In this document: positions 17,029-43,811 of the stretch, piece by piece | How the letters are laid out: each line of letters begins with the position of its first letter | Numbering within the stretch: the first letter of the stretch is position 1 | From: an uncultured Gemmatimonadales bacterium | GTDB taxonomy: Bacteria; Gemmatimonadota; Gemmatimonadetes; Longimicrobiales; RSA9 | Assembly (NCBI GenBank): GCA_963783305.1 | Contig: CAWAMW010000002.1 | Span: 384,001 to 448,000, forward strand | Length of the DNA stretch: 64,000 bases | Direction: 5' to 3' | Notes under the pieces: model-generated | The model's input: only the letters and a program-made list of their open reading frames with translations | Database searches by the model: none | Told to the model about the DNA's origin: nothing | Made by a program: the position numbers and the translations under genes

Positions 17029-17176
17029 ACCTCCCTCAATGTGGGTGAAAAAGCCCACACGCACTCTGCATGGCGCCCCGCGATAGGCCGTTTTACCGCT
17101 GTAGGGGTGAAAAACCCTCCATGCAATCCGCATTGGACCGCGCGGCAGACGGTTTTACCGCCGTATGGGTGAAAAA
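17029..17176. repeat. Three-unit, 62-bp-period array of imperfect palindromes (REP-like)
   Basis: GGGTGAAAAA starts at 17043, 17105 and 17167. Full units are TTTTACCGCTGTAGGGGTGAAAAA (17091-17114) and TTTTACCGCCGTATGGGTGAAAAA (17153-17176). Confidence 0.75.
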
Positions 17177-17209
17177 TGCCCTCATCCCGTGGCACCCCGG
17201 GGGCAGAGA

Positions 17210-36422: not shown

Positions 36423-37217
36423 CTACGACGGCTGACAGCCCGGGCACCAGTACGTGCTCCGGCCCATGTCCCCCTGGAGGAACCGTTCGATGGCCGTGCC
36501 GCAGTCGAGGCACGGCTTGCCCGCCCGCCCATACACCCAGAGCCGCTGGCTCGACGGCGTGGGCCGGCGGCGGAGCGGCACGCTCGTCCTGCGCCGGGTG
36601 AGCAGGTTGAGCCGCATGAGGTGCGCGGCCTTCTCCATCAGCGACCGCACCCCCTCCGGGTCGAGGTTGCCCACGGGCGTGCGAGGATGCACCCGGCACT
36701 CGAAGAGGACCTCGCTCTTGTAGACGTTGCCGATCCCCGCAGCCACCCGCTGGTCGAGCAGCAGGTCGCCGATCTCGCGACCGGCGTACCCCGGCTGGAG
36801 CGCTCGCCGGACTGCCTCATCGATCTCCGGCGGGTCCGCCAGCAGGTCCGGGCCCAGGCGCGCCAGCTTCGGGTGTCTCGCGGCGTCGGCCGTACGGACC
36901 ATCTCCGCGCGATAGGCGCCCTCGCAGGCGTACACCGTCGGTCCGACCACCAGCGTGACCGTGGCCCGCGCCGGGCGACGCTGCCGCACGTGGAGCCGCC
37001 GCCATCTCCCGTTCATCCCCAGGTGGATCCGCACGCTCCAGCCGCCCGCCAGGTGGACGAGCATGTGCTTGCCCACCGCCTCCACGCCCTCGACCTCCCG
37101 GCCCGCCAGCTCCGCGATCTCGCCCGCGTCGTGCAGCGCCAGGCTGTCGACGCGCTTCCCCGTGATCTCCCGGCCCAGGATACGGGCGACCCGGTGGACG
37201 GTATCTCCCTCGGGCAC
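36423..37217 (-). CDS. nei: Fpg/Nei-family DNA glycosylase (endonuclease VIII-like)
   Basis: (M)PEGDT catalytic N-terminus, GKH, HLGMNG, H2TH LLDQRVAAGIGNVYKSE, zinc finger CLDC..CPGCQ. GTG start overlaps the lhr TAG. Confidence 0.93.
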   Translation of the reverse strand: MPEGDTVHRVARILGREITGKRVDSLALHDAGEIAELAGREVEGVEAVGKHMLVHLAGGWSVRIHLGMNGRWRRLHVRQRRPARATVTLVVGPTVYACEGAYRAEMVRTADAARHPKLARLGPDLLADPPEIDEAVRRALQPGYAGREIGDLLLDQRVAAGIGNVYKSEVLFECRVHPRTPVGNLDPEGVRSLMEKAAHLMRLNLLTRRRTSVPLRRRPTPSSQRLWVYGRAGKPCLDCGTAIERFLQGDMGRSTYWCPGCQPS

Positions 37218-40200
37218 TATCGATCTCCGCTGATCCGCACGTACCGGTAGTCCGGCGTGAACCCGGCGGCCTCCATGGCCCCCAGGAGCGGGGACCGGAA
37301 CGCCGCCTCGCCGTCCACCGTCTCCAGGGAGAGCACCCGCCGCGCCTGCCGCGCGGCCACGGCGCGCAGCAATGGCAGCGCCCGGGCCACCCGGTCCGGC
37401 TCCACGCCCGCAAACGTCCTCAGGCGACGGCCGCGCCGGTCCAGGTAGAGCACCGGCGCGCCGTCCACCAGCACTACCACCGAGCCGGTGGAGCGCGTCG
37501 GGGCCCGACCGCTCGACTCGGTCAGCTCGGGCCACGGCAGCAGCCAGCCGTACGGGTTCGCCGGGTCGGTGGCCGCCAGCGCCACCACCTCCCCCTCCGC
37601 CTCCCCGTCGCGGACGCGCCGCAGCCGGTCCACCAGACCGGGGTAGGCGAACTGCGCGCCGCCCAGTCCCTCGACGAAGTAGCCGCGACGCACCTTCCCC
37701 TGCTCCTCCAGCGACCGCAGCACCCGGTACACGCTCGAGAACCCGCCGCCCAGCGCTTCCACCGACGCCGTCTCCCGCGCCACGACGCCGTGCCGGTCGA
37801 GCAGCGTCATCGCCCACGCGGCCGCCCGCTCCGTGGAGCTCACGGGCTGCCGGACCAGGTCCCGGACCAGCGACCAGCGACCGCCGGGGCCCGCCGACCC
37901 CGCACCGCTTCCGCCCGCCCGCCCCAGCACCTTGCCGGGACGCGGGAGCCCGGCGCGCGGCCGCCCGCCAGGTCGTCCCGGCCGGCCGGCCCGGCCGCTC
38001 CGCCTCGAGCTCCCGCGCCGGGAGGACGGCTGCGACAGATGGCGGAGTGCCGCGAAGGTGTCGTTCGTCACGAGCCCGCCCCACACGAGGTCCCAGACCG
38101 CCTCGAGGAGCCGGTCCGGGGACACGTCCGGCAGCGCGGCCGCGAGCTCGCCGTGAAACGAGGCGCCCCGGCCGTCGAGGTGCTCCAGGACGCGGCGGTG
38201 CCGGTCGTCGAACGTCTCCACCAGCTCGGCGGCGTCGTCCAGCGCGGGCGGCACGAGGAGGCGGTCCACTCGATCCCGCCGGTAGAGCAGGACCCGGCCG
38301 TCGTCGCTCCGGAGCGGGGAGTGGCCGACCCAGACCAGCCACCCCAACGACCCCAACTCGTCCAGCATGGCCGGGTGGAAGTCGCGCACCCGGGATGGCA
38401 GGATCATCCGCACCAGCTCGCGGTAGCTGAGCGGGATCCCCTCGAGCTGGATGAGGGCGTCCTCGACACTGTCATGGAGGTCCCCACTCACCCGGTGCCA
38501 CGACGGGAGGAACCGCGCGAGCACCTCCGGGTCCACCGGCGCCACCTGGCCCCGCAGCTTCGCAATGGTCCACCGCTTGACCTGACGCAGCACCTCCGGG
38601 TCCACCCACTCCTCGCCCTCCGCGCCCGGGCGGAACTCGCCCCGGAGGAGCCGACCGTCATCGGCGAGACCCTTCAGCAGCGACCGCACCTGCGCCGGCA
38701 CCAGACCGTAGCGCTCCGCGAGCTCCCCGGCGGTGAACGGGCCGTGCGTCCGGGCGTAGCGACCCAGCAGCTGCTCCACCGGGTCCGCCGCGGGCTCCAG
38801 GAACGCCGACGCCACCCCCGCCGGTGGCGCCACTCCCAGCGCGTCCCGATAGAGCGCCACGTCCTCCACGGCCACCCATGCGTCCCGCCCCGCCACGCGC
38901 ACGCGCGCCGCCCGGCGAGCGGAGCGCAGCTCCGCGAGCCAGCCCTCGAGTGTGCGTCGGGCCGCGTCGGCATCGATGTCGCTCTCCGCGGCAGTGGTCG
39001 CTGTTCCGCCCTCCACGCTCGACGATCGATGATCGAACCGCTCGAGCAGCTCTGCTTTCGTCAGGTCGCCCAACTCCCGCAGCACGTCGTGGAGCGCGTC
39101 CGGGTGCCGCGCCCGCCGACCTTCCGTCCGCCGCTGCAGCCGGTCCTCCACCTCGGTGATGACGTCGGCGTCCAGCAGCTCCCGCATGTCCGCCTCGCCC
39201 AGCAGCTCCCGGAGCAGCTCCATGTCCACCGAGAGCGCCTGCGCCCGCCTCTCCGCCGCCGGCGAGTCCCCCTCGTAGAGATAGGCGGCGACGTAGGCGT
39301 ACACGAGCGAGCGGGCGAACGGGGACGCGCTCGACGTCTCCACCTCGTGGACCCGGATCTCCCGGCTCCCGATCCGCCGCAGCACGTCCCGCAGCGCGGG
39401 CACATCGAAGACGTCCTGGAGGCTCGAGCGGTAGGTCTCCATGACGATGGGGAAGCTCGGGTACTGCATGGCCACGCCCATGAGCTTCTGGGCCCGGAGC
39501 CGCTGGGCGAACAGCGGCGTGCGGTGCCCGGGCCGGCGTCTCGGCAGGAGGAGCGCGCGGGCGGCGTTCTCCCGGAACTGGCTGGCGAAGAGCGGGCTCC
39601 GGGCCAGCTCGTCGATCACCCGGTCCTCGATCTCGTCCGGATCAGGGATGAGGCGGTCGAGCTCCGGCGGCTCATCGCCGGCGGCCAGGGTCAGGACGAT
39701 GCCGTCGTCGGACCAGACGGTCTGGACGTCATAGCCCACGCGCTCGCTGACCAGCCCGCGGATGGCCAGCGCCCACGGCGCATGCACCCGCGAGCCGAAC
39801 GGCGTCAGGATGCAGACGCGCCAGTCACCGAGCTCGTCGCGGAACCGCTCGAGCGTGATGTCGCGGTCGGTGGGCAGGGTGCCCGTCGCGTGCTCCTGGT
39901 CGGCCACGTAGTCCACCAGGTTGCGGGCCGCCCATTCGTCCAGGCCGAACTCCTGCCGGAGCCGCGACACCGCCGCCTCCTCGTCCCCGGCCACGACGCG
40001 GTCGCCGATCTCGCGGGTGAACGCGCCCAGCGCACGACCCAGCTCCAGCGGACGGCCGGGACCCTCACCCTTCCAGAACGGCAGCCGCCCCGGCTCGCCG
40101 GGCGCCGGCTCCACGATCACGCGGTCGCGGGTGATATCCTGGATCCGCCAGGTCGTGGCGCCCAGCGTGAACGTCTGCCCCGGCTGCGACTCGTGCACCA

Positions 40201-41824
40201 TCTCCTCGTCCAGCTCGCCCACCCGCGGGCCGTCCTCCCCCAGGTAGACGGCGAACAGACCGCGGTCGGGGATGGTGCCGGCGTTCACCGCGGCCAGCAT
40301 CCGCGCGCCGCGCCGGCCGCTGATGACGTCGCGTTCCCGGTCCCAGTGGATCCGGGGCCGGAGCTCGCTGAACTCGTGCGACGGGTACAGCCCCGACAGC
40401 ATGTCGAGCACACCTGTCAGCGCCGACTCCGGCAGCTCCCGGAAGTTGGCCGACCGGCGGACCAGCTTCGCGAGGTCGTCGACCGGCCAGTCCTGAACCG
40501 CCGCCATGGCGACGATGTGCTGGGCCAGCACGTCCAGCGGGTTGGTCGGGACGCGGAGCGGCTCGATGGCACCCTCCCGCATCCGCTGCGCGACAATGGC
40601 CGCCTCCAGCAGGTCGCCCCGGTGCTTGGGGAAGACGCGGCCTATGCTGGGCTCACCCACCTGGTGACCCGCGCGACCCACACGCTGGAGCCCGCTCGAT
40701 ACCGACCCCGGGCTCTCCACCAGGATCACCAGGTCCACCGCGCCCATGTCGATCCCCAGCTCCAGTGAGCTGGTAGCCACGATCGCAGGCAGCGACCCGG
40801 CCTTGAGCGCCTCCTCCACCTCCCGCCGCTGCTCGTGCGCAAGGCTCCCGTGATGCGACCGCACCAGCTCCTCGCCCGCCTGCTCGTTCAGCCGCTGCGC
40901 CAGCCGCTCCGCCAGGCCCCGGCTGTTCACGAAGATGATGGTCGTGCGATGCGAACGGATCAGCCTCAGGATCCGCGGATAGACCGCCGGCCAGATCCCG
41001 TACTGCCGCGTCACCTCCTCTTCCTCCGCCAGCATCAGCGACCCCGGCGGCTCCTCCCCCTCCTCGATTACGGCGAAGTCCCCGTCCTCCGTCTCCACCA
41101 CCGGCCGCGTCATGTCCTCCACCGGGACGATGACCTGCAGGTCCAGCAGGGGCGGGACGTGGGCGTCGATGACGGTGACCGGGCGGTCGCCGGCGAGGAA
41201 GCGCGCGACCTCGTCCGCCGGCCGGGCTGTGGCGCTCAGGCCGATCCGCTGCGGATCCTCGTCCGCCACCCGGCTCAGCCGCTCCAGCGACAGCGACAGG
41301 TGCGCCCCGCGCTTCGTGGCCGCCATGGCGTGGATCTCGTCCACGATCACCCACTTCACGCTCCGGAACGTCTCCCGCGCCTGCCCGCCCAGCAGCAGGT
41401 AGAGCGACTCCGGCGTGGTCACCAGGATCTCGCCCGGGTCCCGGATCTGACGACGGCGGTCGCTCTGCGGCGTGTCCCCCGTCCGCACGTCCACACGCGG
41501 ATGACGGTAGTGCTCCCCCAGCCGCGCGGCCGCCCGCTCGATCCCCGCCAGCGGTGTCCGCAGGTTCCGCTCGATGTCATAGACCAGCGCCTTCAGCGGC
41601 GACACGTAAACGACCCGGACCCCCGGCTCCGCGTCGTCCTCCAGCCGACCCAGCCGGTCCAGCGCGTACAGAAACGCCGCCAGTGTCTTTCCGCTCCCGG
41701 TCGGCGCGATCAGTAGCGTGTTCTCCCCAGCCGCGATGCGCGGCCAACCCTCGCCCTGCACCTCCGTGGGCGCGGCGAAGGCGCGGTCGAACCAGTCGCG
41801 GGTGGCGGGCGTGAAGTAGTCCAT
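37217..41824 (-). CDS. lhr: Large helicase-related protein (full-length Lhr with C-terminal winged-helix/glycosylase-like extension)
   Basis: APTGSGKT, SPLKAL, TTPESL, DEIH, SAT, HHGSL, ATSSLELGID and QRVGRAGH; C-terminal RRGYFVEGLGGAQF and ATDPANPYG. Confidence 0.95.
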   Translation of the reverse strand: MDYFTPATRDWFDRAFAAPTEVQGEGWPRIAAGENTLLIAPTGSGKTLAAFLYALDRLGRLEDDAEPGVRVVYVSPLKALVYDIERNLRTPLAGIERAAARLGEHYRHPRVDVRTGDTPQSDRRRQIRDPGEILVTTPESLYLLLGGQARETFRSVKWVIVDEIHAMAATKRGAHLSLSLERLSRVADEDPQRIGLSATARPADEVARFLAGDRPVTVIDAHVPPLLDLQVIVPVEDMTRPVVETEDGDFAVIEEGEEPPGSLMLAEEEEVTRQYGIWPAVYPRILRLIRSHRTTIIFVNSRGLAERLAQRLNEQAGEELVRSHHGSLAHEQRREVEEALKAGSLPAIVATSSLELGIDMGAVDLVILVESPGSVSSGLQRVGRAGHQVGEPSIGRVFPKHRGDLLEAAIVAQRMREGAIEPLRVPTNPLDVLAQHIVAMAAVQDWPVDDLAKLVRRSANFRELPESALTGVLDMLSGLYPSHEFSELRPRIHWDRERDVISGRRGARMLAAVNAGTIPDRGLFAVYLGEDGPRVGELDEEMVHESQPGQTFTLGATTWRIQDITRDRVIVEPAPGEPGRLPFWKGEGPGRPLELGRALGAFTREIGDRVVAGDEEAAVSRLRQEFGLDEWAARNLVDYVADQEHATGTLPTDRDITLERFRDELGDWRVCILTPFGSRVHAPWALAIRGLVSERVGYDVQTVWSDDGIVLTLAAGDEPPELDRLIPDPDEIEDRVIDELARSPLFASQFRENAARALLLPRRRPGHRTPLFAQRLRAQKLMGVAMQYPSFPIVMETYRSSLQDVFDVPALRDVLRRIGSREIRVHEVETSSASPFARSLVYAYVAAYLYEGDSPAAERRAQALSVDMELLRELLGEADMRELLDADVITEVEDRLQRRTEGRRARHPDALHDVLRELGDLTKAELLERFDHRSSSVEGGTATTAAESDIDADAARRTLEGWLAELRSARRAARVRVAGRDAWVAVEDVALYRDALGVAPPAGVASAFLEPAADPVEQLLGRYARTHGPFTAGELAERYGLVPAQVRSLLKGLADDGRLLRGEFRPGAEGEEWVDPEVLRQVKRWTIAKLRGQVAPVDPEVLARFLPSWHRVSGDLHDSVEDALIQLEGIPLSYRELVRMILPSRVRDFHPAMLDELGSLGWLVWVGHSPLRSDDGRVLLYRRDRVDRLLVPPALDDAAELVETFDDRHRRVLEHLDGRGASFHGELAAALPDVSPDRLLEAVWDLVWGGLVTNDTFAALRHLSQPSSRRGSSRRSGRAGRPGRPGGRPRAGLPRPGKVLGRAGGSGAGSAGPGGRWSLVRDLVRQPVSSTERAAAWAMTLLDRHGVVARETASVEALGGGFSSVYRVLRSLEEQGKVRRGYFVEGLGGAQFAYPGLVDRLRRVRDGEAEGEVVALAATDPANPYGWLLPWPELTESSGRAPTRSTGSVVVLVDGAPVLYLDRRGRRLRTFAGVEPDRVARALPLLRAVAARQARRVLSLETVDGEAAFRSPLLGAMEAAGFTPDYRYVRISGDR

Positions 41825-41854: not shown

Positions 41855-41960
41855 CGGTTCACAGGGCGGCTGCGCCGCCGTTCACGGTTCACGGTTCACG
41901 GTTCACGGTTCACGGGCCGGCGCCGTTCACGGTGCATGGTGCATGGTTCACGGTTCACGG
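41855..41960. repeat. 7-bp tandem repeat tract
   Basis: GTTCACG x5 at 41880-41914, plus further GTTCACG and GTGCATG copies to 41960. Confidence 0.92.
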
Positions 41961-42014
41961 GCCGGCGAGAACGCCGTGGCGATTGGCGGCTGGGCCTGGT
42001 GGACGGCCTGACCA

Positions 42015-42211
42015 TTCCGGGGAACTCCCCAACCAACGGGGGTTTCACGGTTCATTGGGGACTCGACCGGACATATTCCGGGGAAGTCCCCGAGGGATCA
42101 TGGGTTGGCGCAATTCGTTGGGGAGTTCTCCGGAGTATGTCCGGGGAAGTCCCCAGATTTCGCACCACCCACCGTTGTTTGGGGACTTGACCGGGTACCG
42201 CACCGGGAAGT
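42015..42211. repeat. ~62-bp-period array of 35-bp palindromic repeats (REP/BIME-like; CRISPR-like spacing)
   Basis: GGGGACTCGACCGGACATATTCCGGGGAAGTCCCC (42057-42091) and GGGGAGTTCTCCGGAGTATGTCCGGGGAAGTCCCC (42120-42154), a half unit at 42015-42030 and a degenerate unit from 42181. Intervening segments are 26, 28 and 26 bp. Confidence 0.85.
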
Positions 42212-42226
42212 GGGGGCGGCCGGCCA

Positions 42227-42308
42227 CGGCCGCCCTCCTCTCGGCCCCCTCCTCTCGGCCGCTCTCCGCTCGGCCGCTCTCCGCTCGACCGCCCCCACTC
42301 GGCCGCCC
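42227..42308. repeat. Tandem repeat, ~5-6 copies of a 14-15 bp unit
   Basis: CGGCCGCTCTCCGCT and variants. Confidence 0.8.
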
Positions 42309-42331
42309 AGCTCCCATCGCACCTGCGTGGC

Positions 42332-43255
42332 TCACCGGACCAGCGCCTGGGCCAGCTTCACCAGGAGTTGGCGCGGCTCCCGAACGATCTGCCGCCAGGT
42401 GACCCGCATGGTCCGATATCCCGCCGCCATGAGTACGGCGTCCCGGTTCCGATCGGCCTCGAAGGCATGATCCCCGTCGTGGTATGCGCGGCCGTCGACT
42501 TCGACGATCAGACGTTCATCGGGCCAGAGGGAGTCCACCTCGAAACCCTCGACGACGACGTTGGTTTTCGGCCGGGGCAGCTCGGCGCCGCGGACCAGGT
42601 CGTGGAACCGGCGCTCGGCCTCGGACCGGAGGAAGGCGGGTTCACCGTCGGCGTCCAGGAGCGCCCGCAGCCGACCGCGTCCCGCGCGGCGCTGATAGCG
42701 GTCGAGGAGCACCTCGAAGTCCCCTGGAGTGACCATGTCCCGCCGGAGCGCGGTCGCCAGCGCGCGTTCGAGATCCCTGCCGCCACAGACGCCGTCCCTG
42801 CCGCCACAGACGCCGGCGAGGTCGAGGATGGTCCGGGCGGCAGAGGTCAGGGGGAGCCCCTCCCGAGCCGTCACTTCGTCGGCCCCGAGGGCGCTCACCC
42901 GATGGATCCGGATCGCCGAACCTCCGATTCGCACGTCCCGGATCGTGCTGATCTCCACGGGCGCGTCCGCGGCCAGCGGCGGCAGGAGCTCGAGAACCGC
43001 GGCGGCCGCACGGTGGCTGACGAAACAACCATCGCCCGTGGCCAGAACCGCGGCGAGCTCCCGCGCCCGTGGCCCGGCCACGGCCCGGACTGCATAGACG
43101 CCCCGATACACCGACGTCAGCACCCCGCACTCGAGCCGGTACTCGATCCGGTTCCCGGAAATCCCGGCCGCGATCAGCTGCGACCGCGCCACTACCCCAT
43201 GCTGCCGAGCCGCGATCTGATGAATCGCCGCGTCGGCCCGGGCGCTCCCGGACAC
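42332..43255 (-). CDS. AbiEi-type N-terminal HTH protein with C-terminal DUF559 (Vsr-like PD-(D/E)xK) endonuclease domain
   Basis: QHGVVARSQL..G and YRGVYAV (AbiEi-like); SHRAAA and TSAARTILD middle domain; RSEAE...EVDSLW...IVEVDGRAYH...DRNRD..L..AGY..RVTW (DUF559). Confidence 0.88.
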   Translation of the reverse strand: MSGSARADAAIHQIAARQHGVVARSQLIAAGISGNRIEYRLECGVLTSVYRGVYAVRAVAGPRARELAAVLATGDGCFVSHRAAAAVLELLPPLAADAPVEISTIRDVRIGGSAIRIHRVSALGADEVTAREGLPLTSAARTILDLAGVCGGRDGVCGGRDLERALATALRRDMVTPGDFEVLLDRYQRRAGRGRLRALLDADGEPAFLRSEAERRFHDLVRGAELPRPKTNVVVEGFEVDSLWPDERLIVEVDGRAYHDGDHAFEADRNRDAVLMAAGYRTMRVTWRQIVREPRQLLVKLAQALVR

Positions 43256-43376
43256 CGTGCGATGGCTCCCACACGTTCTCTCCACCCGTCGAAGCTCACG
43301 CGTGGGACGGGGCAACACCATGGCGGAGCGGGACGGGCCCGTAGATTCCGACGCCCCCCGCCATCGCGAAGGACCC

Positions 43377-43442: not shown

Positions 43443-43811
43443 ATGACCTTCGACGCGCAGTCCCTGCCGAAACGGCTGAACGAGCTGCTCATACTCCAGG
43501 AGCTGGATCGAGGCCCGCTGCATGGCTATCAGATCGCACTGGCGGTGGAGGACCGGAGCGAGGGGTATTTCGCGTTCAGCCACGGCACGCTCTACCCGAT
43601 CCTGCACCGCCTGGAGAAGGACGGTCTGATCGCGGGCCGGTGGTCTGACCCGGCGGAAGGTCGTCCGCGCAAGGAATATGAGATGACGGAGGCGGGTCGG
43701 ATCCATCTGGGGGCGCTGATCAGCGATTGGAGGAAGCTGAACGCCCGGGTCGAGACATTCCTGGAAATGGGGGAGGCGACGGATGGAGAGATTCGCACCG
43801 GCGCTGCGTAG
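43443..43811 (+). CDS. PadR-family transcriptional regulator
   Basis: HGYQI, GTLYPILHRLEKDGLI and RPRKEYEMTEAG. Confidence 0.93.
   Translation: MTFDAQSLPKRLNELLILQELDRGPLHGYQIALAVEDRSEGYFAFSHGTLYPILHRLEKDGLIAGRWSDPAEGRPRKEYEMTEAGRIHLGALISDWRKLNARVETFLEMGEATDGEIRTGAA

Follow-up and report, generated by a model that had tools for sequence, protein, structure and literature searches.

What does a chromosomal nuclease gene have to do with the palindromic repeats that lie beside it? The question is raised by a locus in a window of 64,000 nucleotides from an uncultured Gemmatimonadales bacterium, where a gene for an AbiEi-DUF559 protein, an array of short alternating sites and several microsatellites lie next to each other. 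A preliminary description had interpreted these parts as a module analogous to REP palindromes and RAYT transposases, and the sequence features that it named (gene, tandem repeat, palindromic array and GTTCACG run) are all present (Table 1). Of the proposed module, the coupling of gene and array, their co-variation and the solo copies in the same genome have stood up to analysis, whereas the RNA, the exclusively downstream position and the microsatellite parts have not. AbiEi-DUF559 genes are common and uncharacterised, and the domain pair is also known from mycobacteria (PMC13366182). There, the Rv1073-like AbiEi + COG2852 proteins have the identical pair of domains; they are conserved and are given no assigned role in that paper, the main text of which does not contain the word "repeat" and draws no link to flanking arrays.

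The nuclease gene and its protein

The gene starts with a GTG at 43255, with GGGAG 10 nt 5' of the start, and its reading frame extends to 42332. The dN/dS values (Table 1), which come from four pairs of homologues, indicate purifying selection. Pfam domains in the protein are AbiEi_4 (residues 13-56), DUF559 (212-304) and MTES_1575 (229-305). In the predicted model, folded from an alignment of 46 sequences, residues 2-207 match AbiEi (6Y8Q; Z 14.8, rmsd 3.9, 187 residues aligned); the same module matches Rv2827c (1ZEL; Z 10.6, rmsd 4.1, 190 aligned), and PADLOC recognises AbiEi in residues 8-190 with an E of 1e-24. The closest solved nuclease domain to the C-terminal part is that of I-Bth0305I (3R3P; Z 13.1, rmsd 2.0, 92 aligned), and Vsr is matched as well (1CW0; Z 11.5, rmsd 1.9, 98 aligned). 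Residues E214, D241, E252, D254, H259 and D268 of this domain are invariant in 51/51 homologues. A sequence alignment places D241, D254, H259 and D268 on D196, N208, H213 and D222 of I-Bth0305I, and the structural offset equates E214 with E170. As modelled, the window protein joins a complete AbiEi fold to a nuclease of the Vsr/I-Bth0305I type with intact active-site residues.

Upstream of the gene, the motif CCATGGYSRYGCCCCG is possibly a promoter element: at ≤2 mismatches it is found within 130 nt upstream in 12 of 52 homologues, where about 3% would be expected. Promoter and terminator scans at the locus gave no result.

Six DUF559 paralogues exist in the window genome (G000), all of them on contig C2 amid unrelated neighbours, which are housekeeping genes with no defence-island context. 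The absence of an AbiEii toxin, already part of the preliminary description, extends to the whole set, as no AbiEii gene adjoins any of the six, and the single AbiEii gene of this genome, on contig C7, is paired with its own upstream gene. Among 8000 candidates scored, 922 relatives of the protein were found at E≤1e-40. Among 50,697 phage and 72,556 plasmid records none contained a full-length homologue, and a scan of viral contigs yielded the nuclease domain only, with no full-length match.

Table 1. Coordinates of the gene, the element and the neighbouring repeats in the window
Feature	Position	Strand	Remarks
AbiEi-DUF559 gene, stop codon included	42332..43255	-	307 aa; model pLDDT 91.8; dN/dS 0.21-0.27
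AbiEi module (winged helix + AbiEi C-terminal domain), residues 1-207	42635..43255	-	Predicted DNA-binding part; fold matches, PADLOC
Vsr/EDxHD-type nuclease domain (DUF559), residues 208-307	42335..42634	-	Fold matches, invariant residues
Motif CCATGGYSRYGCCCCG upstream of gene	43308..43323	-	Possible promoter element
180-bp element	42016..42195	.	Six alternating 22-bp half-sites, three doublets, period 61-63; consensus TCCGGnnAAnTCCCCAAnnAAC
Half-site 1	42016..42037	+	Outer
Half-site 2	42050..42071	-	12-bp variable gap before, 5-bp gap after
Half-site 3	42077..42098	+	
Half-site 4	42113..42134	-	14-bp variable gap before
Half-site 5	42140..42161	+	
Half-site 6	42174..42195	-	Outer, gene-proximal; ~137 bp from stop codon
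15-bp tandem repeat between gene and element	42227..42308	.	Locus-specific, outside conserved unit
GGCGGCTGCGCCGCC hairpin + GTTCACG run	41864..41960	+	Separate small repeat

A six-site element and its counterparts beside homologous genes

The array had been counted as four palindromes of 35 bp. Palindromes are indeed present, but the count was wrong: there are two full palindromes and two terminal halves, which together make up the six half-sites of Table 1. These pair into three doublets of 56-58 bp, with gaps that alternate between 12-14 and 5 bp. No array in the 4.35-Mb genome scores higher than the window array, and a single other one, next to a different DUF559 paralogue, scores equally. 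All 11 copies in four genomes have six sites at the same spacing. The ends of the element are sharp and the outer half-sites are conserved in 11/11 copies, being 75% alike across genomes as against 57% for the inner ones, while the linkers are wholly different between copies.

A lack of enrichment of such arrays around homologous genes had been set beforehand as the refuting outcome. The enrichment is present: of 47 loci with homologues in relatives, 29 have an alternating array within 650 bp, as against 1/59 control loci (Uma2 nucleases 0/30, PadR 1/29), a comparison to be read with the caveat that control genes may have shorter intergenic flanks, and as against 25 of 3342 genome windows. At least one such locus occurs in 14 of 18 genomes. 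The period was 60-63 in 32 of the 34 array-bearing flanks although 54-72 had been searched, and held-out loci gave arrays at 3/7 with periods of 60-62. These observations support a strong and specific coupling of the gene family to arrays with a period of about 61 bp. It is not universal, as 18/47 homologue loci and 2/6 of the window genome's own paralogues are without a detected array. In distant homologues the six-site form is rare: it was seen at 2/13 metagenome loci, and at period 59-64 at 0/5 other loci, actinobacterial ones included. A scan of genome contigs gave five distant loci only. The idea that arrays are specifically downstream is not supported, with 18 upstream and 16 downstream and five of these on both sides; at the window gene itself the array sits downstream and the upstream flank scores 0.

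The sequence of the repeat tracks the phylogeny of the protein, as had been predicted (Mantel rho -0.41, p 0.0005, 27 arrays). For 18 of the 27 arrays the best repeat match lies among the three nearest proteins, where about 3 would be expected, and in the clade of the window gene (support 0.99) every member carries an array of the TCCCC/GGGGA type despite two different chromosomal sites. Repeat similarity best follows the AbiEi C-terminal domain, which is also the longest part of the protein (partial rho 0.26, p 0.001); for the winged helix, independent co-variation was not seen (partial rho 0.09, p 0.15). Because the gene and the adjoining array are linked, co-variation alone could be the result of co-inheritance.

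Solo copies and related systems

Arrays also occur away from the gene. The window array family has three copies in G000, two of them solo (C16:129141 and C16:138266); of the other paralogues, p2 has two solo copies of its array, p3 five, and for p5 none were found. Profiles built on 23 arrays of other genomes gave 0 clusters in G000, and the window array was found in 0/40 relatives. Searches with gene-linked arrays, by which solo copies were identified, gave solo copies of the G004/G006 type in G006 (six), G004 (nine) and G003 (one), with none in G002 and G005; G003 also has five solo copies of its own type. Eight of ten solo copies score best against the gene array of their own genome, and one G003 copy is of the G004/G006 type, not that of its own gene. 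In four sets of DNA contigs, matches to the array are limited to one solo copy of this genome and a single short relative. Two solo sites are common to different species, which implies that movement is at best rare. The five orphan arrays tested in G000 include three that match no paralogue flank, one with a weak match to p4 and one that could not be modelled.

DUF559 was not found in 5/5 gene-less genomes. No strict array was seen in 1.08 Mb of G019 or in 0.09 Mb of G016, and the gene-bearing G017 likewise gave none in 0.4 Mb, compared with seven in G000. All five orthologous genes in G000 lack an adjoining array, but their neighbouring genes differ. No base-precise empty site was found: lhr was detected in 2/5 genomes of the genus, and of the two lhr genes in G003 one is preceded by gene and array and the other is not, but the flanks are too diverged to give a precise junction.

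The closest precedent for the sites is found in AbiE and Rv2827c. AbiEi occupies inverted repeats of 23 bp with a spacing of 3 bp, one monomer on each (PMC3985639), and Rv2827c binds four 23-bp repeats with gaps of 13 and 4 bp, a sum of 63 bp (PMC7319586). Both have the two-domain fold of residues 2-207 in common with the window protein, and their operators share with the window array the sites of about 23 bp, the short (3-5) and long (12-14) gaps and the period of 61-63. Unlike the window protein, they lack a fused nuclease and AbiEi has an AbiEii partner; the window array has six sites, and such arrays are often downstream or solo instead of at promoters only, as in the operators described in these papers. 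Membership in the AbiE type IV toxin-antitoxin systems was rejected, with no AbiEii bicistron and with the window array downstream instead of over its own promoter (18/47 homologues have it upstream).

As in REPIN-RAYT systems, a standalone chromosomal enzyme gene is flanked by inverted-repeat doublets, with several gene-specific repeat families per genome, intergenic solo copies, variable spacers and mostly vertical inheritance (PMC3337134, PMC3733652). The differences from what is described there are an AbiEi + Vsr-type nuclease in place of the HUH Y1 transposase, doublet arms that are about 64% complementary instead of near-perfect hairpins, a unit of constant form with six sites and a single period in all families, and 2-10 copies per family instead of hundreds. 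A GTAG/CGTC tag at a fixed position is absent from 3/3 copies of the window array family. The locus was therefore not assigned to REPIN-RAYT (REPtron), as the adjoining gene is not a RAYT, the tag is missing and hairpins are not conserved. The partnership of gene and array likely resembles repeat-plus-transposase systems, with an unrelated enzyme as the predicted partner.

Dimeric I-Bth0305I covers about 60 bp of DNA, equal to one doublet of the window array, and cuts the centre of a pseudopalindrome (PMC3239194). It and Vsr share the nuclease fold, the catalytic residues and an N-terminal DNA-binding part with the window protein (PMC3239194), which, unlike I-Bth0305I, has AbiEi instead of NUMOD domains and no intron or intein. 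The candidate target adjoins the gene and recurs in its own genome instead of being an empty allele as for EDxHD homing endonucleases; unlike Vsr, 5/6 paralogues are not paired with a methyltransferase. Membership in the EDxHD homing endonucleases was not accepted: the residues are present, but the gene is intergenic, between intact lhr and padR, and no precise empty allele was found. A published description of the AbiEi-DUF559/array pairing was not found in the main texts of openly accessible papers.

Possible modes of interaction and neighbouring repeats

As the repeat has solo copies in this genome and its sequence varies with the gene across relatives, the protein likely binds it, and judged from these sequence patterns it is quite probable that each AbiEi-DUF559 protein binds its own array. 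The fuller account, in which the array is bound as duplex DNA by one molecule per site and the predicted nicking or cutting copies the array and keeps it in step with the gene, is evenly balanced between right and wrong. By analogy with the AbiEi family, one AbiEi monomer would occupy each half-site of 22-23 bp, with the larger C-terminal parts facing the gap of 12-14 bp, an arrangement that has been proposed for Rv2827c. A single protein pair would thereby cover one doublet (about 60 bp) and bring two nuclease domains to the variable linker, in analogy with dimeric I-Bth0305I. Nicks or breaks in the arrays might drive recombinational copying and homogenisation, which is the weakest step. The outcome would be lineage-specific repeat families with slow turnover in a REPIN/RAYT-like layout, but with duplex DNA read by a protein instead of single-stranded hairpins. 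Free cutting of the protein's own chromosomal sites would be toxic, which implies that some control is missing from the model.

Tentatively, and with more doubt than confidence, this could be extended to a novel class of element, selfish or domesticated, in which an antitoxin-derived reader and a homing-endonuclease-type cutter would sit as three pairs on their own 180-bp array and mobilise it without a transposase, solo arrays would serve as landing pads for the gene, and the 22-bp specificity would be re-tuned in each paralogue to give hundreds of natural nuclease-target pairs. Such small (300 aa) nucleases matched with long recognition sites are possible tools. Short extragenic palindromes have so far been tied to RAYT transposases, so a protein that spreads its repeat would provide a second, independent route for their origin and persistence in bacterial genomes. 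With a predicted target sequence and binding geometry for each AbiEi-DUF559 gene, function is directly testable.

Binding could instead serve the host, the arrays acting as sites that park or titrate the nuclease until its release in phage infection or stress, or as operator or architectural sites, with spread by host recombination only. AbiEi proteins act as repressors on such repeats, 18 arrays are located upstream of their gene, some solo sites are retained from one species to another, and the genes are chromosomal, under purifying selection and without full-length matches in the phage, plasmid and viral collections. We consider this rather unlikely, as the 16 downstream arrays cannot be operators of the adjoining gene, the neighbours are unrelated housekeeping genes with neither toxin nor defence island, each of the up to six paralogues in a genome has a repeat family of its own, and the constant length and conserved outer ends suggest an element, not a regulon.

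Miniature inverted-repeat elements of DDE transposons have terminal inverted repeats and a target-site duplication. The arrays might be such elements moved by another enzyme, for example one of the two Y1 transposases (Y1_Tnp) of the genome, with the nuclease gene merely sharing repeat-rich insertion sites. Terminal inverted sites, constant length and orphan array families in G000 fit this reading, and intergenic regions with arrays are rich in unrelated tandem repeats (8/15 vs 94/586). It is nevertheless improbable: the surroundings of both Y1 genes are free of arrays (best scores 32 and 30), the longest flanking direct repeat at 11 copies (2.09 vs 2.04 for mismatched flanks) is at chance level and indicates no target-site duplication, half-sites are kept while linkers change completely, and co-location would hardly yield one period over many unrelated repeats together with co-variation with the protein family.

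Least probable, and very much so, is that the array acts as a folded single strand, either as an RNA, guide or structured, that is processed to about 60 nt, which the preliminary description had listed among its options, or as a REPIN-like DNA hairpin recognised by the nuclease. Predicted folding is strong (z -5.6 as DNA and as RNA, 0/200 shuffles as good), but any alternating array would fold. Read-through transcripts would include the array, since the genes on its two sides are on the same strand, and RAP domains of the Vsr fold, which bind RNA, are among the fold matches. On the other side, no Rfam model, introns included, matches at the locus, and arrays are found both upstream and downstream of genes. 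Over 21 arrays, complementarity is 64% for adjacent arms and 65% for arms separated by three sites (p 0.26), while neighbours in the same orientation are more alike (70%, p 0.006), a pattern that fits tandem duplication and a common consensus and does not fit pairing; duplex binding sites fit this better than hairpins or guide RNA. The linkers, described earlier as partial inverted copies of each other, have only a weak resemblance (10/16 ungapped, by eye), which is not conserved. Guide arrays of the CRISPR or TIGR type consist of direct repeats with target-matching spacers and are transcribed and processed to small RNAs; here the sites alternate in direction, each linker has 12-14 free bases and 0/3 linkers have a second match in this genome with ≤5 mismatches, and this class was rejected.

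The microsatellites, which had been counted as part of the unit, lie outside it because their sequences differ from copy to copy: the tandem repeats flanking other array copies are not those of the window. The GTTCACG run (41880-41960) belongs to a separate small repeat with five copies in the genome, three of them beside arrays of the window family.

The nuclease gene and its adjoining array

The 307-residue product of the AbiEi-DUF559 (MTES_1575) gene was modelled by AlphaFold from 46 sequences (pLDDT 91.8). In structure comparison, residues 2-207 resemble the AbiEi fold (Z 14.8), with Rv2827c as a further match of this part (Z 10.6), and residues 209-307 resemble I-Bth0305I (Z 13.1) and Vsr (Z 11.5). 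E214, D241, E252, D254, H259 and D268 are invariant in 51/51 homologues, a count that leaves out the frameshifted paralogue p6, and the invariant DUF559 residues correspond to the EDxHD residues as given in the accessible part of PMC3239194. Four close homologue pairs have dN/dS values of 0.21-0.27. A tandem duplication within the gene keeps the frame and adds seven residues in a low-confidence loop. The motif CCATGGYSRYGCCCCG, possibly a promoter element, lies 26-107 bp upstream in 12/52 homologues.

The sequence features named in the preliminary description were found at their positions. The palindrome array is present, but its reading as four units is better replaced by six alternating 22-bp half-sites, forming doublets (two inverted half-sites around a linker) with gaps of 12, 14 and 12 bp inside the doublets and 5 bp from doublet to doublet. 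A detector for alternating inverted 16-mers, allowing periods of 54-72 and masking short tandem repeats, scored nothing in the 4.35-Mb genome above this array and one adjoining another DUF559 gene. All 11 copies examined, from four genomes, have six sites with identical spacing; their similarity ends at the outer half-sites, and no target duplication was found. Across genomes, outer half-sites are 75% alike versus 57% for inner ones.

Coordinates of genes, arrays and repeats (C, contigs of the genome holding the window)
Feature	Position	Strand	Remark
Nuclease gene	window 43255->42332	minus	between lhr and padR
lhr	window 37217-41824	minus	neighbour of nuclease gene
padR	window 43443-43811	plus	neighbour of nuclease gene
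Tandem duplication	window 42774-42815		exact, 21 bp
Motif CCATGGYSRYGCCCCG	window 43308-43323		
Window array, half-site starts	window 42016, 42050, 42077, 42113, 42140, 42174		
Second alternating array	window 17036-17184		62-bp period
Further arrays	C7:73633; C16:313470; C15:374412; C17:211930		61-62-bp period
GTTCACG repeat copies	window 41864-41960; C16:129000, 129521; C2:760148, 769077		
Paralogue p6	C2:104613-105485		frameshifted
AbiEi-AbiEii pair	C7:252300-254539		standard
GAGCCACCCTGCGAG-core repeats	C2:770858; C16:413208; C12:35989		examples

Coupling of genes and repeat families

Enrichment of arrays beside homologous genes, as anticipated from the window alone, was borne out. Arrays (detector score at least 35, within 650 bp of the gene) occur at 29/47 homologue loci in 14/18 genomes, compared with 0/30 Uma2 nuclease genes, 1/29 PadR genes (window padR dropped) and 25/3342 genome windows of 1.3 kb, counts in which related loci are non-independent and control flanks possibly poorer in intergenic DNA. 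The 47 loci are near-full-length and leave out the window gene, partial matches and four of its own paralogues. Arrays lie upstream at 18 and downstream at 16 loci, five of these having both, and the period is 60-63 in 32/34 scoring flanks, with unrelated repeat sequences. Of seven later loci kept as a held-out set, three had arrays (periods 60-62), and a single genome accounted for all three. The form becomes rarer among more distant homologues: it stands beside 2/13 full-length metagenome homologues (one duplicate, one partial dropped), 1/13 nuclease-only matches and none of five distant genome loci. One of these five, a Solirubrobacterales homologue (L217), has, as read by eye, a single 45-bp palindrome on either side, the one-doublet form of the element.

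Repeat sequence also co-varies with protein clade, as had been proposed: likeness drops as protein distance grows (Mantel rho -0.41, p 0.0005, 27 arrays), and for 18/27 arrays the best repeat partner is among the three nearest proteins. TCCCC/GGGGA arrays are common to the window-gene clade with three related genomes, G003, G004 and G006 (support 0.99), in which the gene precedes lhr in G003, as in the window, and occupies a different site in G004 and G006. G003 has two lhr genes (L031, L033; contigs C73 and C173) about equally similar to that of the window; only one of them is preceded by the nuclease gene and an array.

In the window genome, own-array profiles find three array clusters for the window gene, two for p2, five for p3 and none for p5; no cluster there was matched by profiles built from 23 arrays of other genomes. 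Two extra copies of the window-array family sit on C16, a contig without a DUF559 gene, and BLAST found the window array in none of 40 relatives. Solo copies (arrays without an adjoining gene) of the G006 type number six in G006, nine in G004 and one in G003, with none in the relatives G002 and G005; the G003 array has five in G003. The gene array of the own genome is the best fit for 8/10 scored solo copies, a proportion favoured because they were found with gene-linked queries; the exceptions are a G004 copy closer to the sister G006 type and a G003 copy of the G004/G006 type.

Six AbiEi-DUF559 genes, four with a detected array, lie among unrelated neighbours on contig C2, and the genome's only AbiEii gene stands apart from them, which agrees with the described absence of a toxin partner. 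The standard AbiEi-AbiEii pair directly follows an apparent tmRNA gene and is preceded by one inverted repeat, which measures ~47 bp (by eye). The gene adjoining p6 is one we take to be a DNA adenine methyltransferase (N-terminus). Homologues occur in 18/24 genomes of the family, 1/16 of the remaining order and at least 5/200 phylum-wide (12 candidates scored per genome); those carrying a taxon name belong to Longimicrobiales, an order within Gemmatimonadota.

Predicted binding and alternative readings

The accessible text of PMC3985639 describes AbiEi monomers on 23-bp repeats spaced 3 bp, and that of PMC7319586 describes four bound 23-bp repeats for Rv2827c, 13 bp apart within pairs and 4 bp between pairs, the long gap being proposed to hold the larger C-terminal domains. 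As given there, repeats and gaps sum to 63 bp, the period of the arrays, and AbiEi-family spacing agrees with that of the window half-sites. I-Bth0305I is a dimer covering ~60 bp and cutting in the middle, according to the accessible part of PMC3239194. By domain, the AbiEi C-terminal part shows the strongest co-variation with the repeat and the winged helix none independently, weak evidence from sequence that this part may track the repeat best.

Binding of the protein to the array is not the only predicted step: in the most likely reading, the protein would bind each half-site, bound proteins would pair across the variable linker and nick or cut, and recombination would then copy and homogenise the array. 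Binding by itself is quite probable; the full series of events stands at an even chance. This binding model is concrete and testable. Against mobility, no precise empty site, which the preliminary description had proposed to look for in relatives, was found at the loci compared, two solo sites are common to different species, and orphan arrays exist, such as that at window 17036. Strict arrays numbered zero in 1.08 Mb of G019 and 0.09 Mb of G016, genomes without the gene, and zero as well in 0.4 Mb of G017, which has it, while the window genome has seven. That bound arrays serve a host function is a doubtful alternative. Passive co-location, with arrays moved by another enzyme, seems improbable, as neither Y1 gene of the genome has an array nearby. 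Action as folded RNA or single strand is very unlikely: the window array strand has a predicted folding z of -5.6, but complementarity between adjacent inverted arms (0.64) does not exceed that of arms three sites apart (0.65; p 0.26, 21 arrays), so that the arrays fit better as predicted duplex binding sites than as hairpins. Same-orientation neighbouring half-sites are more alike (0.70, p 0.006, 21 arrays), and linkers vary from copy to copy, those of the window array matching nothing elsewhere in the genome.

The suggested RAYT/REP analogy holds for organisation, which is that of REPIN-RAYT systems as far as described in the accessible parts of PMC3337134 and PMC3733652, but the enzyme, tag and hairpin features of those systems differ. 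AbiE systems share the AbiEi fold and operator geometry, here without toxin or promoter position, and EDxHD homing endonucleases share the active site, here without intron or empty allele. The accessible text of PMC13366182 mentions the AbiEi and COG2852 domain pair without function or repeats, and that of PMC3710099 handles MTES_1575 only as a HEPN fusion. No description of the gene-array pairing was found in the openly accessible main texts searched, and the nuclease-plus-repeat system, its activity predicted, is real, statistically strong and apparently undescribed.

Neighbouring repeats

Intergenic regions with an array show an excess of tandem repeats (8/15 vs 94/586, crude gene caller), but the sequences of these repeats change from locus to locus, and the microsatellites once counted as part of the element are better left out of it. 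The GTTCACG repeat is a separate small element, a GGCGGCTGCGCCGCC hairpin plus GTTCACG run, with five copies, three of which adjoin arrays of the window-array family; two flank the C16:129141 array copy, one per side, inverted. The second alternating array of the window belongs to another family (GTGAAAAA / TTTTACC sites), stands between GGGTCTGCG and 19-bp tandem repeats and matches no paralogue flank in the genome. Among the further arrays, those at C7 and C16 form one family without a matching gene, and that at C17 weakly resembles the upstream region of paralogue p4. A 17-18-bp tandem repeat family with a GAGCCACCCTGCGAG core is abundant at many intergenic sites.
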